Shown piece after piece: positions 1,924-53,239 of a stretch of 64,000 nucleotides of DNA. Source of the DNA: Escherichia coli. Lineage in GTDB: Bacteria; Pseudomonadota; Gammaproteobacteria; Enterobacterales; Enterobacteriaceae. Under the pieces are notes generated by a model. It was not told the DNA's origin, made no database searches, and saw nothing but the letters and a program-made list of their open reading frames with translations. How positions within the stretch are numbered: position 1 is the first letter of the stretch; each line of letters begins with the position of its first letter. Location of the stretch: the NCBI RefSeq assembly GCF_046105845.1, contig NZ_CP151004.1; one strand, given 5' to 3'. The translations under genes were made by a program, and so were the position numbers.

Positions 1924-4614
<2,691 letters not shown>

Positions 4615-4644
4615 TGTGTTTACTGATATGAAAAGAGTTTAACA

Positions 4645-5469
4645 ATGCAGCAGTTACAGAACATTATTGAAACCGCTTTTGAACGCCGTGCCGAGATCAC
4701 GCCAGCCAATGCAGACACCGTTACCCGCGAAGCGGTAAATCAGGTGATCGCCCTGCTGGATTCCGGCGCACTGCGTGTAGCGGAAAAAATTGACGGTCAG
4801 TGGGTGACGCATCAGTGGTTGAAAAAAGCGGTGCTGCTCTCTTTCCGTATTAATGATAATCAGGTGATCGAAGGGGCAGAAAGCCGCTACTTCGACAAAG
4901 TGCCGATGAAATTCGCCAACTACGATGAAGCACGTTTCCAGAAAGAAGGCTTCCGCGTCGTGCCACCAGCGGCAGTGCGTCAGGGCGCGTTCATTGCCCG
5001 TAACACCGTGCTGATGCCGTCTTACGTCAACATTGGCGCATATGTTGATGAAGGCACGATGGTTGATACCTGGGCGACCGTCGGTTCCTGTGCGCAGATT
5101 GGTAAAAACGTCCACCTTTCCGGTGGCGTGGGTATCGGCGGCGTGCTGGAGCCGCTGCAGGCTAACCCGACCATTATTGAAGATAACTGCTTCATCGGCG
5201 CGCGCTCTGAAGTGGTTGAAGGGGTGATTGTCGAAGAAGGTTCCGTCATCTCTATGGGCGTATACATTGGTCAGAGCACCCGTATTTACGACCGTGAAAC
5301 CGGCGAAATCCACTACGGTCGCGTTCCGGCGGGATCTGTGGTTGTTTCAGGCAATCTGCCGTCGAAAGATGGCAAATACAGTCTTTACTGTGCGGTTATC
5401 GTTAAGAAAGTTGACGCGAAAACTCGCGGCAAAGTCGGCATTAACGAACTGCTGCGTACCATCAACTAA
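4645..5469 (+). CDS. dapD: 2,3,4,5-tetrahydropyridine-2,6-dicarboxylate N-succinyltransferase
   Basis: 274-aa [37 protein letters not shown]...; hexapeptide-repeat C-terminus. Confidence 0.97.
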
Positions 5470-5481
5470 AAGTATGCACAC

Positions 5482-5510
5482 GGGCAGCACGACGCTGCCC
5501 GATTGCTTTC
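5482..5510 (+). terminator. Putative terminator hairpin after dapD
   Basis: Stem gggcagc / gctgccc with 5-nt loop, followed by a moderately T-rich tract. Confidence 0.45.
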
Positions 5511-5783
5511 TGGTTCAGAATAATTCGTCCTACTCATTCTTCTTCCCCCCTTTTTTAAATACTTTTTCATCTTGTTTCGGACTGTCATGTAATTCGCAAA
5601 ACGAAGATAAATGTGCTAATCCATCCCATGGAATATCGCCACAATAAAGCAGGTAATTTTTTGATTTTTACGCCATGATAGAAGTCTGGAAGAAAAAGGC
5701 TTTCTGCGATCACAGTCGAGCCGGGCGGGCCAGGCCAAATGCTAAAATAAGCACAATTTACTGACTCATTTTGAGGTAACGCT

Positions 5784-6170
5784 ATGTACGACAATCTGAA
5801 AAGTCTGGGTATTACCAATCCTGAAGAAATTGATCGTTACAGCCTCCGGCAGGAAGCCAACAACGATATTCTGAAAATCTATTTCCAGAAAGACAAAGGC
5901 GAGTTTTTCGCCAAGAGCGTGAAGTTTAAATATCCGCGTCAGCGTAAAACGGTCGTCGCTGATGGTGTGGGTCAGGGTTATAAAGAAGTCCAGGAAATCA
6001 GCCCGAATCTAAGGTATATCATTGATGAGCTTGATCAAATCTGCCAGCGTGACCGCAGCGAAGTTGATCTTAAGCGTAAGATCCTCGACGACTTACGTCA
6101 CCTGGAGTCAGTTGTAACCAATAAGATCAGCGAGATTGAAGCCGATCTGGAAAAACTAACGCGTAAATAA
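5784..6170 (+). CDS. yaeH: UPF0325 family protein YaeH
   Basis: 128-aa [45 protein letters not shown]... Confidence 0.93.
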
Positions 6171-6195
6171 TCCCGAACTGACGGTTAACTCGGGC

Positions 6196-6228
6196 ATTCC
6201 CCTCTCCCCTTCGGGCTGAGGGGAATGA
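6196..6228. terminator. Hairpin between convergent yaeH and cdaR (possible bidirectional terminator)
   Basis: Perfect 10-bp stem cattcccctc / gaggggaatg with 13-nt loop; no clear U-tract. Confidence 0.35.
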
Positions 6229-6258
6229 GCCAGCGCCGCCTCGACCTTAACGCATAAC

Positions 6259-7416
6259 CTACCGCTCTTCATCCAGTTGTAACGCCACATACAGCAGCAA
6301 TCTGTCATCAAAATTGCCCAAATCAAGCCCGGTCAGTTCCGATATACGATTAAGCCGATACTCCAGGGTATTACGATGAATAAACAGCGCCTTTGACGTT
6401 GCCAGCGGCTGCACGTTATGGCGAAACCACGCCGCCAGCGTTCGCCGCAGCAAGCCGTTATTGTCCATCGCTTTCAGCCGCGCCAGCGGTCGCGCCAGTT
6501 CGTTGGCCTGCCAGTCGCCACGCAAACTGTCGAGTAACACAGGTAACATCAGATCCTGATAAAAATAGCAGCGACTTTCTGGCATCCGTTGTTTACCCAC
6601 CACCATCGTCGTTTTCGCCGTACGATAGGATCGGGCAATACTGCCAGGACCGGTAAAATAGTTGCCCAGCGAAACGCGAAAACGCAGCTGGCCGTACTCT
6701 TTCATGCGGGTAATCAGTTGTTCAACTCGCTTACGATGATCTTCTGCATCCCAGCGCCCAAAAGAGTTCAACGCCGGTTTCAACACCACCATTTCGGTTA
6801 GCGAGACAATCGCCACCAGATTATTACGCTCGGGCGTAGTCAGCGCGTTTTGCAGTTGTTGTAACTCCGCCATTGCGCTGTCCACACCAAGCTGACCGCT
6901 GTCGACCTCAACAATAGCCACCACTCGCGGTTGATTGAGATCGATCCCCAGCCGTTGCGCCCATTCCGTAAGTGCGGGAGTATTCTCCTCAGCCTGAATC
7001 AGGTTCATCACCAGTTCTTCCCGCAAACGGCTATCCTGCGCCAACAGGTGCATCAACCGCGACTGTTCCAGCATCATTTCAGCCGTCATGCAGACCAGTT
7101 CGCCATATTTACGCAGGTTCTCTGGTTCACCAGTCAGGCCAATTACGCCGACAATTTCACCTTCCAGCCGTAACGGCAGATTAATCCCCTGCCGCACACC
7201 GTGCAGATGACGTGCCACCGCGTCATCGATATCGACGACTCGTCCCTGTGAAAGTACCAGCAATGCTCCTTCGTGCAATTCACCAATACGCTCACGATCG
7301 CCGCTGCCGATAATTCGCCCGCGGGCATCCATTACGTTGATATTGGTATCGATGATGCGCATGGTACGTGCCACGATATCCTGCGCCATTTTGGTATCAA
7401 GATGCCAGCCAGCCAT
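6259..7416 (-). CDS. cdaR: Carbohydrate diacid regulator (PucR/CdaR family)
   Basis: ORF 6259-7434 (-); start taken at MAGWHLDTKMAQDIVARTMRII (385 aa); C-terminal helix-turn-helix. Confidence 0.9.
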   Translation of the reverse strand: MAGWHLDTKMAQDIVARTMRIIDTNINVMDARGRIIGSGDRERIGELHEGALLVLSQGRVVDIDDAVARHLHGVRQGINLPLRLEGEIVGVIGLTGEPENLRKYGELVCMTAEMMLEQSRLMHLLAQDSRLREELVMNLIQAEENTPALTEWAQRLGIDLNQPRVVAIVEVDSGQLGVDSAMAELQQLQNALTTPERNNLVAIVSLTEMVVLKPALNSFGRWDAEDHRKRVEQLITRMKEYGQLRFRVSLGNYFTGPGSIARSYRTAKTTMVVGKQRMPESRCYFYQDLMLPVLLDSLRGDWQANELARPLARLKAMDNNGLLRRTLAAWFRHNVQPLATSKALFIHRNTLEYRLNRISELTGLDLGNFDDRLLLYVALQLDEER

Positions 7417-7534
7417 AAGTCCTCCGTTATGCACGGCTTAGCATAAGGAAGTACGTAACGTACGGCATTGTGCAAATGCCCAAAGGATGATGAAGATGTA
7501 TGGAGTTGTGGCGAAGTTCACAGATTGTAAGGAG

Positions 7535-7562
7535 AACCCCTTCCCGTATTCAGGAAGGGGTT
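7535..7562 (-). terminator. Putative terminator after degP
   Basis: Stem aaccccttcc / ggaaggggtt with 8-nt loop, immediately after the degP stop; weak U-tract on - strand. Confidence 0.45.
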
Positions 7563-7570
7563 GAGGGAGA

Positions 7571-8995
7571 TTACTGCATTAACAGGTAGATGGTGCTGTC
7601 GCCGCGCTGAATGTTCAGTGCCAGCACAGACGGTTTGCTGTCGAGAACTTTACGCAGTTCAGCGATGTTTTTCACTGCCTGCTGGTTCGCGCCGATAATC
7701 ACATCACCTTTCTTCAGGCCGATCTGCGCAGCCGGAGTGCCCGTTTTCACGTTGTTCACTACCACGCCCTGATCTTTGCCTTTGTTGCTCATCTCAGCGC
7801 CTTCAATACCGTTGAAGATGGAGCTGGAATCAACCTGATTCTGGCTGCTCTGCTGCAGTTCCAGATTCACGTTGACCTGCTTACCGTCGCGCAGCAAGCC
7901 CAGGGTCAGTTTGCTGCCCACCGGCATAGTACCCACCTGAGCACGCAGGGCGGCAAAGCTGCTGATTGGCTTACCGTTCAGTGAGGTGATCACATCTCCC
8001 GCTTTAATGCCCGCTTTTGCAGCGGAGGAATTAGGCAGAACCTGGCTTACGAAAGCACCGCGCTGGGCGTCAACTTTCATCGCTTTCGCCAGTTCGGAGT
8101 TCAGCTCAGTCCCCATAATACCCAGCTCACCGCGTTTCACCTGGCCGTATTCCACCATCTGCGAGGTCAGGTTTTTCACCATGTTGCTCGGGATAGCAAA
8201 ACCGATACCGATGTTGCCGCCGTCCGGTGCGAGGATCGCGGTGTTGATACCGATCAGTTCACCGTTCAGGTTAACCAGCGCACCACCGGAGTTACCACGG
8301 TTGATCGCTGCATCGGTCTGGATGAAGTTTTCGTAGTTTTCGGCATTCAGCCCGCTACGCCCCAGCGCAGAGACAATCCCGGAAGTTACCGTCTCACCCA
8401 GACCAAACGGGTTACCAATCGCTACGGTGTAATCACCCACGCGCAGTGCATCAGAATCCGCCATCTTAATTGCGGTCAGGTTTTTCGGGTTCTGGATCTG
8501 GATCAGCGCGATATCAGAGCGCGGATCTTTGCCGACCATCTTCGCGTCGAACTTACGGCCATCGCTCAGCTGGACTTTAATCACCGTCGCGTTATCAACA
8601 ACGTGGTTGTTGGTGACGACATAGCCTTTATCGGCATCAATGATGACGCCGGAACCCAGCGCCATGAATTTCTGTTGCTGGCCGCCACCATTACCGCCCT
8701 GGCCCCCCTGGCAGAACGGAGAGCTCTGGAACGGAGAACCTTCCTGGCAGAACGGAGAATCATCACCGAAGAACTGCTGGAAATTACGCGGCATACGCGG
8801 CGTATTAACGGTTGTGCTACCTTCTACGTTAATGCTGACCACTGAAGGCATCACCTTTTCGAGCATCGGTGCAAGGCTTGGCATCTGCTGGGCTGTCGTT
8901 GCTGAAGAAGTCTCAGCCGCCGTTGCAGAGAGCGGAGATAACGCCAAACCTAAACTCAGAGCCAGTGCACTCAGTGCTAATGTGGTTTTTTTCAT
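7571..8995 (-). CDS. degP: Periplasmic serine endoprotease DegP/HtrA
   Basis: 474-aa ORF MKKTTLALSALALSLGLALSPLSATAAETSSATTAQQMPSLAPMLEKVMPSVVSINVEG...; trypsin-like plus two PDZ regions. Confidence 0.97.
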   Translation of the reverse strand: MKKTTLALSALALSLGLALSPLSATAAETSSATTAQQMPSLAPMLEKVMPSVVSINVEGSTTVNTPRMPRNFQQFFGDDSPFCQEGSPFQSSPFCQGGQGGNGGGQQQKFMALGSGVIIDADKGYVVTNNHVVDNATVIKVQLSDGRKFDAKMVGKDPRSDIALIQIQNPKNLTAIKMADSDALRVGDYTVAIGNPFGLGETVTSGIVSALGRSGLNAENYENFIQTDAAINRGNSGGALVNLNGELIGINTAILAPDGGNIGIGFAIPSNMVKNLTSQMVEYGQVKRGELGIMGTELNSELAKAMKVDAQRGAFVSQVLPNSSAAKAGIKAGDVITSLNGKPISSFAALRAQVGTMPVGSKLTLGLLRDGKQVNVNLELQQSSQNQVDSSSIFNGIEGAEMSNKGKDQGVVVNNVKTGTPAAQIGLKKGDVIIGANQQAVKNIAELRKVLDSKPSVLALNIQRGDSTIYLLMQ

Positions 8996-51172: not shown

Positions 51173-52726
51173 TTATACCGTAAACCCTAACATCATCCCC
51201 GTATCTTCATGCTCCAGCAAATGGCAGTGCGCCATATAAGAATGTTCTTTCGGTGCATCGTGATTAAACTTCACCAGCACTTCGCTGACATTACCTTCTA
51301 CCTTAACGGTATCTTTCCAGCCTGCGCGATGAGTCGCTGGCGGTTTGCCATTTTCTGACAAGATACGGAACTGCGTACCGTGGATATGGAACGGATGCAG
51401 CATCATGTCGCCCACGCCAGAGATAACCCAACGTTCGTATTGCCCTTTCGCCGCCGCAAACATCGGCTTGTTCATATCAAACGCCTGACCGTTGATTTTA
51501 TTGGCATGGTGGAAATCGAACTTCCCGCCGTGGTTCATATGATTCATATTGCCATGCCCCATATGCCCCATCATCTGGCTGTGATCCATCCCGGCCATCG
51601 CCTGATCGCCATATTTCTCCATCAGCATCTGCATACCCATCATATCGAGCATCGGGTCCATAGAGAGTTGCAGCTTGCGTACCGTCAGCCCTTCCAGCGA
51701 AGGTAACGCAGGCAGGCTACTTAATGTGTCTGGCAAAGCACCAGAGGCACTAATGGCAATCGGCTGAATCCGCATTACCGGATGCGGCTTGTCAAAGGGC
51801 GCAATCGCCATCCCCATCTGGCTGACCGGCAGCGTCACCAGGTCAAATGGTTTGTTGTCGTTAACCTCCACCAGCACTTCAAAACGCTCACCCATCAGCA
51901 CCGGTAGCTCGCTCACCTTCACCGGTTCAGGTAGCAGACCACCGTCGCTGGCAATCACATACAGCGGGCGATTGTCGCTGGTGGCGAAATTGAGCGAACG
52001 GGCATTACAGCCATTGAGCAAACGCAGGCGCAGCCAGCCGCGCGGGGCAGCATGTTGCGGGTAGATTGCACCGTTGGTCAGCAGCGTATCGCCAAACCAG
52101 CCCACGGCGGCGGTCATCACATCCAGTTGATAATCAATCTGCCCGTCAGCGTTAAATTTTTTATCCTGAACAATCACCGGGACATCATCAATACCCCACT
52201 GTTTTGGCAGCATTAATTTCAGGATCTCGTCATCTTCAATCACCACCAAACCAGCCAGCCCCATCGCCACCTGACGTCCGGTCTTGCCATGTTGATGTGG
52301 ATGGAACCAGCAGGTAGCGGCAGGTTGATCAACGTTCAACGTCACCGAGCGCTTGCCACCTGGCGGAATAATTCCCTGCGGGCCGCCGTCGACTTCACCC
52401 GGTACTTCCAGCCCGTGCCAGTGCAACGTTGTCTCTTCCGTCAGTTGGTTGTAGATATCAACCGTTACCGCTTTGCCGCGCTGTAATTTCACCGCCGGCC
52501 CCAGCAGATTGCCGTTATAGCCCCAGGTAGTTGCAGTTTTCCCGCCAAAGGTGGACTGGCCTGCGCCAATAGTTAACTGAATGCGATTACGGGCATCGGT
52601 CGTGAGCAAATCAGGGATCGGTAACGTTGGGCGGCGTTCCGCCGCAAATACTGCGCGGCTCCACAGCGGTAAAGCCGAAGCCACGCCCAGCGCGACGGAA
52701 TATTTTAAGAAATCACGACGTTGCAT
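51173..52726 (-). CDS. cueO: Multicopper oxidase CueO
   Basis: ORF 51173-52765 (-); start taken at [28 protein letters not shown] (twin-arginine signal); Met/His-rich segment [39 protein letters not shown]; copper ligands HCHLLEH. Confidence 0.93.
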
Positions 52727-52771
52727 AGTTATTTCCTTATTCTTAAGCAGGCGAAACAAAATCAAACGTTG

Positions 52772-52802
52772 AGCATAGTCCTTCCCCTTACGGGAAGGTC
52801 AA
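52772..52802 (-). promoter_or_regulatory. MerR-type (CueR) promoter of cueO
   Basis: On - strand TTGACC, 19-nt spacer containing perfect dyad CCTTCCCGTAAGGGGAAGG, TATGCT; 19-bp spacing is the MerR-family hallmark. Confidence 0.7.
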
Positions 52803-52891
52803 GCCGCAGACACAATTTAATCGACAATAATGGTCGTCGCCTCGCTCGCAGTGTGCTAACGTTTATCTTCTTTAAGCCCCTGGTAGAAGCA

Positions 52892-53239
52892 ATGAAGACG
52901 TTTTTCAGAACAGTGTTATTCGGCAGCCTGATGGCCGTCTGCGCAAACAGTTACGCGCTCAGCGAGTCTGAAGCCGAAGATATGGCCGATTTAACGGCAG
53001 TTTTTGTCTTTCTGAAGAACGATTGTGGTTACCAGAACTTACCTAACGGGCAAATTCGTCGCGCACTGGTCTTTTTCGCCCAGCAAAACCAGTGGGATCT
53101 CAGTAATTACGACACCTTCGACATGAAAGCCCTCGGTGAAGACAGCTACCGCGATCTCAGCGGCATTGGCATTCCCGTCGCTAAAAAGTGCAAAGCCCTG
53201 GCTCGCGATTCCTTAAGCCTGCTTGCCTACGTCAAATAA
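52892..53239 (+). CDS. yacC: PulS/OutS-like lipoprotein-type protein YacC
   Basis: In-frame ATG at 52892 within ORF 52721-53239 gives MKTFFRTVLFGSLMAVCANSYALSESEAEDMADLTAVFVFLKNDCGY... (115 aa). Confidence 0.88.
   Translation: MKTFFRTVLFGSLMAVCANSYALSESEAEDMADLTAVFVFLKNDCGYQNLPNGQIRRALVFFAQQNQWDLSNYDTFDMKALGEDSYRDLSGIGIPVAKKCKALARDSLSLLAYVK

Follow-up and report, generated by a model that had tools for sequence, protein, structure and literature searches.

The cueO gene is a copper homeostasis gene, and in the Escherichia coli DNA studied here it lies on the minus strand of a stretch of 64,000 nucleotides (NCBI RefSeq assembly GCF_046105845.1, contig NZ_CP151004.1). This whole stretch is referred to below as the window. 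The locus raises the question of which signal controls cueO, and of where its transcription and translation begin. In this study, we analyzed the segment directly upstream of the gene. The element found there is almost certainly the CueR-dependent, copper-inducible sigma-70 promoter of cueO, of the MerR type that works through "activation by DNA distortion". The element is already known, and our analysis is a re-identification of a well-characterised CueR promoter without new biology. The site was reportedly first described by Outten, Outten, Hale and O'Halloran in J Biol Chem in 2000.

CueR is the MerR-family sensor of Cu(I), Ag(I) and Au(I), and its target promoters have a 19-bp spacer (PMC8169799). 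Its core site is CCTTCC-N7-GGAAGG, as quoted in PMC8169799 from Yamamoto and Ishihama 2005. Both copA and cueO are activated by CueR (PMC8169799, PMC5329002, PMC9909328), and apo-CueR represses the two genes from the same site (PMC5329002). The cueO promoter, PcueO, is attributed as a CueR target to Outten et al. 2000 where that work is cited in PMC8169799 and PMC5329002. Previous reports stated that cueO is induced by copper (PMC8169799, PMC5329002, PMC10995868), used a PcueO-lacZ fusion as a reporter for CueR-dependent activation (PMC9396075), and handled PcueO as a CueR operator site in living cells (PMC4507017). A comparative genomics study of 2006 included the yacC-yacK (cueO) divergon, with a spacer of 19 nt, among its candidate CueR sites (PMC1526738). 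PMC10995868 was also considered as a cueO-promoter expression system and was set aside, as the promoter used there is actually PcopA. A literature search on cueO for mapped transcription starts, primer extension or genomic SELEX gave no usable data.

Promoter architecture and the start of cueO

The first-pass annotation of this DNA had placed a promoter of the form TTGACC, 19 nt, TATGCT at 52802-52772 on the minus strand, with a perfect inverted repeat in the spacer. Direct reading and a pattern search found both hexamers exactly at these coordinates (Table 1), in the minus-strand context GGC TTGACC TTCCCGTAAGGGGAAGGAC TATGCT CAACG. An inverted-repeat finder returned two arms, CCTTCCC (52798-52792) and GGGAAGG (52786-52780), which are 100% complementary and 5 nt apart. 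The resulting 19-mer dyad is an interrupted palindrome of 7+5+7, the central GTAAG of which is not self-complementary. Its opening CC closes TTGACC, and 2 bp are shared with the -35 hexamer. The repeat is perfect as described, but it runs 2 bp into the -35 and is not confined to the spacer.

Table 1. Features of the cueO promoter and gene, in window coordinates
Feature	Position	Strand	Basis or remark
-35 hexamer TTGACC	52797..52802	-	Direct read and pattern match; the final CC also opens the CueR box
19-nt spacer TTCCCGTAAGGGGAAGGAC	52778..52796	-	2 bp over the sigma-70 optimum
-10 hexamer TATGCT	52772..52777	-	Direct read and pattern match
CueR operator, core box CCTTCC-N7-GGAAGG	52780..52798	.	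Inverted repeat and published core site
Predicted transcription start, about 7 nt past the -10	52763..52767	-	Usual -10 to +1 spacing
cueO 5' leader with Shine-Dalgarno AAGGA (52738-52734)	52727..52762	-	
cueO coding sequence, 517 aa, stop codon included	51173..52726	-	NF008205 multicopper oxidase CueO, residues 1-517

A sigma-70 promoter scan of 52500-53100 on both strands, limited to spacers of 16-18 nt, found no promoter. This result is expected because the spacer of the cueO promoter is 19 nt long. When the box CCTTCC-N7-GGAAGG was searched with at most one mismatch, the 64-kb window contained one match against 0.09 expected, and this single match is exact. As single-stranded DNA, the 31-mer from the -35 to the -10 folds with -7.4 kcal/mol compared to -2.2 +/- 1.2 kcal/mol for shuffled sequences (z = -4.4), and 0 of 200 shuffles folded as well.

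A dyad of this kind could also arise by chance, or it could be a structural element (a hairpin, a terminator, a cruciform or a member of a repeat family) that happens to adjoin a weak promoter and plays no part in regulation. The frame TTGACC-N19-TANNNT occurs once in the window against 0.34 expected, which alone is not improbable, and short palindromes of 6-7 bp are common in the intergenic region, where seven were listed. The bare frame is unremarkable, and the significance of the element thus comes from box and frame jointly and above all from conservation. The structural forms of this explanation are opposed by several observations. The box is unique in the 64-kb window, which argues against a repeat family. 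The scan of 52500-53100 showed no T-tract, and the dyad lies upstream of both flanking gene starts, so that it terminates nothing. An Rfam search of 52400-53200 gave no match at E <= 1, and the reading of the dyad as an RNA element was rejected on this ground.

The open reading frame downstream of the promoter is CueO according to the NCBIfam equivalog NF008205, which scored 976 bits over the full length against a cutoff of 525. The first-pass annotation had taken the position of the promoter as support for its cueO start. This holds for the ATG at 52726 and excludes the TTG at 52765, at which a mechanical list of longest open reading frames opens cueO, 7 nt past the -10. The TTG was rejected as a start codon; it falls on the predicted +1 and therefore cannot be the start of cueO. 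From the predicted +1 to the ATG, the leader would measure about 39 nt. Among genera, between 33 and 45 nt separate the -10 from the ATG, and this variable length indicates that the leader is non-coding. Nearly all orthologues have AAGGA or AAGGG ahead of the ATG. The homologous ATG is the start in all 80 orthologues described below, and the K-12 annotation agrees. These results support translation of cueO from ATG 52726. For annotation, the value of the promoter is that it anchors the start of cueO at this ATG and not at the TTG.

Read from ATG 52726, CueO begins with what we take, by recognition, to be a Tat-type signal. The protein encoded here has 517 aa, with AAERRPTLP after the signal peptide; the annotated K-12 open reading frame of 1551 bp encodes 516 aa. 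CueO of this strain appears to differ from the K-12 protein by one residue just past the signal-peptide cleavage region, near codon 32.

The palindrome AACGTT was observed twice in the cueO-yacC intergenic region, at 52765-52770, just past the -10 and around the predicted +1, and at 52858-52863. This pair is probably due to chance.

Conservation of the promoter in Enterobacteriaceae

The footprint was obtained by a scan with the CueO protein, using one genome per species, and the promoter motif was not used for selection. The scan yielded 80 orthologous loci with 74-98% identity. They cover about 30 genera, among them Escherichia, Citrobacter, Salmonella, Enterobacter, Klebsiella, Raoultella, Kosakonia, Kluyvera and Phytobacter, with about 20 more. 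With the window counted, 80 of 81 loci have TTGACN-N19-TANNNT at most 150 nt from the ATG, and spacers of any other length were absent.

Information content was calculated from the 73 unique sequences, anchored on the -35. The mean per column was 1.97 bits in the -35, 1.50 bits in the spacer and 1.80 bits in the -10, compared to 0.63 bits in the 30 nt upstream and 0.76 bits in the 20 nt downstream. The conserved island starts at the C that precedes the -35 and ends about 3 nt downstream of the -10. Within it, the -35 is invariant or nearly so, and the -10 reads TA(T/A)GCT in all but two of the 73 unique sequences. Arm positions 1, 2, 4 and 6 hardly vary, and neither do their mirror partners. 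Variation is found at position 5 of the left arm (C64/G7/A2) and at its mirror partner 2' (G51/A8/C7/T7). Such a mirror-symmetric constraint is the pattern expected for a homodimeric binder. Box, frame and spacer length persist across about 30 genera, in 80 of 81 loci, whereas the flanks have diverged, and this phylogenetic footprint effectively refutes a chance palindrome; we regard a dyad without regulatory role as next to impossible.

The first-pass annotation had stressed the perfect dyad. Perfection is true of this strain, but it is the minority state: the box is exact in 13 of the 80 loci, it carries one mismatch in 48 of them, and no locus with the hexamer frame has more than three. An exact search, which matched 13 of the 81 loci, had suggested that the box is poorly conserved. 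This reading was discarded, as the relaxed hexamer frame was present in 80 of 81. The arm proximal to the -10 is GGAGGG in 53 of the 73 unique sequences, the change falling at window position 52782 (position 20 of the 31-mer). The only carriers of a perfect GGAAGG are E. coli, E. albertii, some Citrobacter, Raoultella, Klebsiella indica and one isolate labelled Enterobacter, and two Escherichia lineages (L005 and L006) carry GTAAGG. The cross-genus survey makes a modest descriptive point, namely that the 19-nt spacer and the register of the box are near-invariant, whereas a perfectly symmetric dyad is not.

Another block of weaker conservation, rich in A+T, was observed on the minus strand at window positions 52815-52829, which lie 13-27 nt ahead of the cueO -35. 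It reads CGACGAnCTTTATTATT in most genera and CATTATTGTCGATTAAA in E. coli. Its conserved A+T-rich stretch lies 13-19 nt from the -35, with 1.0-1.5 bits at -14 to -18. The block could be an UP element for cueO or the -10 of a divergent yacC promoter. A doubtful idea is that the conserved GGAGGG asymmetry tunes CueR occupancy or the induction threshold of cueO versus copA, with a shifted set-point in Escherichia, or that the A+T-rich block couples cueO to the yacC promoter.

The one locus among the 81 without the promoter was that of Intestinirhabdus alba (NZ_WMJZ01000002.1, 1-1500), where no yacC lies upstream of cueO. Neither TTGACN-N19-TANNNT nor, at up to two mismatches in 4.5 kb, a CueR box was found there. 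The upstream DNA contains open reading frames with a repeated peptide motif, and the 3' part of an open reading frame that, judged by eye, resembles a methyl-accepting chemotaxis protein. In this species, cueO is presumably regulated differently.

The cueO-yacC locus in E. coli

The 201 bp of window positions 52700-52900, which include the entire cueO-yacC intergenic region, are identical to K-12 MG1655 (NC_000913.3). A window position p corresponds to NC_000913.3 position 137083 + (52726 - p). The -35 and the -10 accordingly lie at 137007-137012 and 137032-137037 in K-12, where cueO is annotated at 137083-138633, and the predicted +1 would correspond to about 137042-137046. A 241-bp intergenic query was matched in 5,424 of 5,426 complete E. 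coli genomes, with at least 99% identity in 5,354 records. Profile scoring covered cueO and yacC, and speE is annotated beside yacC in K-12. We take the neighbouring open reading frames of the window to be gcd, speE, speD and acnB from their size, order and orientation, their translations having been recognised by eye. The cueR gene lies outside the 64-kb window. In the K-12 annotation it is found at 513993-514400, near copA, and we infer that it is present in the strain of the window as well.

The divergent open reading frame that starts at 52892 on the other strand is YacC. It begins 94 nt beyond the dyad, and the two genes share an intergenic region of 165 bp. The CueR site could therefore be bifunctional and also control yacC, by repression or by coupling through this shared region. 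The closeness of the yacC start and the wording "yacC-yacK divergon" in PMC1526738 fit such a role, and the conserved A+T-rich block upstream of the cueO -35 could be an element of the yacC promoter. However, this block could equally well be an UP element for cueO, the sigma-70 scan with 16-18-nt spacers detected no yacC promoter, and the literature consulted names yacC neither as a CueR target nor as copper-responsive. Control of yacC is possible but unsupported, and we consider it quite unlikely; it would add to CueR control of cueO and not replace it.

The intergenic query also matched 10 plasmid-borne places. The E. coli plasmid pE6474.2 (NZ_CP116983.1, 98.5 kb, from pig faeces) carries cueO and a gcd fragment at 2685-8084 between two copies of ISVsa5, an element of the IS4 family. 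The flanking end (...GGGGATTCATCAG) is presumably an IS10-type terminus, to judge from its appearance. It abuts TGCTCAACG inside the -10 hexamer, with the junction at about 4001, equivalent to window position 52775 or so. This copy of cueO is without the -35 and the CueR box and thus cannot be controlled by CueR; it may be driven from the insertion sequence instead.

Proposed mechanism and comparison with copA and other MerR-type promoters

At a separation of 19 bp instead of 17 bp, RNA polymerase would be unable to engage both hexamers of the cueO promoter on straight B-form DNA. A CueR homodimer is expected to occupy CCTTCC-N7-GGAAGG from the side of the DNA that faces away from the polymerase. 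In its Cu(I)-free form, CueR would hold the promoter DNA in a shape that represses transcription. Once Cu(I), or likewise Ag(I) or Au(I), is bound, it would kink and undertwist the spacer, so that the two hexamers come to be spaced and phased as in a 17-bp promoter. Transcription of cueO would then begin at about 52765, and translation at ATG 52726.

Much of this model comes from the copA promoter. Cryo-EM on PcopA showed a CueR dimer clamped onto the inverted repeat, on the side of the DNA away from RNA polymerase (PMC8169799). In this complex the spacer is bent and undertwisted, the -35 and the -10 are about 55 A apart, as in a 17-bp promoter, and CueR makes an auxiliary contact with the non-conserved region of sigma-70 (PMC8169799). 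The register-shift mutants PcopA-1bp and PcopA+1bp were predicted to disturb the contact between CueR and sigma (PMC8169799). Since the arms, the spacer length and the register of PcueO are identical to those of PcopA, the structural mechanism should be safely transferable to PcueO.

Comparison with the copA dyad had been proposed as a check in the first-pass annotation. The K-12 copA promoter reads TTGACC-TTCCCCTTGCTGGAAGGTT-TAACCT, with one exact CueR box upstream of copA. As in PcueO, the -35 is TTGACC, the spacer has 19 nt, the arms are CCTTCC and GGAAGG, and the box runs in the same register from the fifth base of the -35 to 2 bp before the -10. The two promoters differ in the central 7 nt (CGTAAGG in PcueO and CCTTGCT in PcopA), in the -10 (TATGCT and TAACCT) and in the dinucleotide that separates the box from the -10 (AC and TT). 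The symmetry also extends differently, outward in PcopA (ACCTTCC...GGAAGGT) and inward in PcueO (CCTTCCC...GGGAAGG). With a box equal to the published core site, the register of copA, conservation in 80 of 81 loci and cueO as the downstream gene, the CueR-type architecture first proposed for this element is borne out.

The site might instead be the operator of another MerR-family regulator, such as ZntR, SoxR or a GolS-like gold sensor as in Salmonella, which would place cueO under another signal. To our knowledge, E. coli K-12 has no GolS paralogue. This alternative draws on the fact that metal-sensing MerR-family promoters all share a 19-20-bp spacer with an internal palindrome, that the signals of CueR and HmrR are nearly identical, and that the CueR paralogue of Salmonella has a CueR-type candidate site and a reported gold response (PMC1526738). 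However, the box equals the published CueR core (PMC8169799), and the literature names CueR as the regulator of E. coli cueO. Loss of the copper induction of cueO upon cueR deletion and a CueR footprint over the operator (52780-52798 here) have reportedly been described. Another regulator of the family is very improbable because the arms are those of the copA operator, the defining target of CueR, in the same register.

The promoter at the same locus of K-12, PcueO of cueO (yacK), is identical base for base, whereas the K-12 open reading frame (1551 bp) is 3 bp shorter than the one found here (1554 bp) in a different E. coli strain. In the MerR-family promoters of Tn21/Tn501 mer, zntA, pbrA and cadA, the dyad operator likewise lies in a sub-optimal spacer of 19-20 bp, and one regulator serves as both repressor and activator by distorting the DNA (PMC1526738, PMC9909328). 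The half-site found upstream of cueO is specific to CueR/HmrR, whereas the other MerR members recognise different palindromes.
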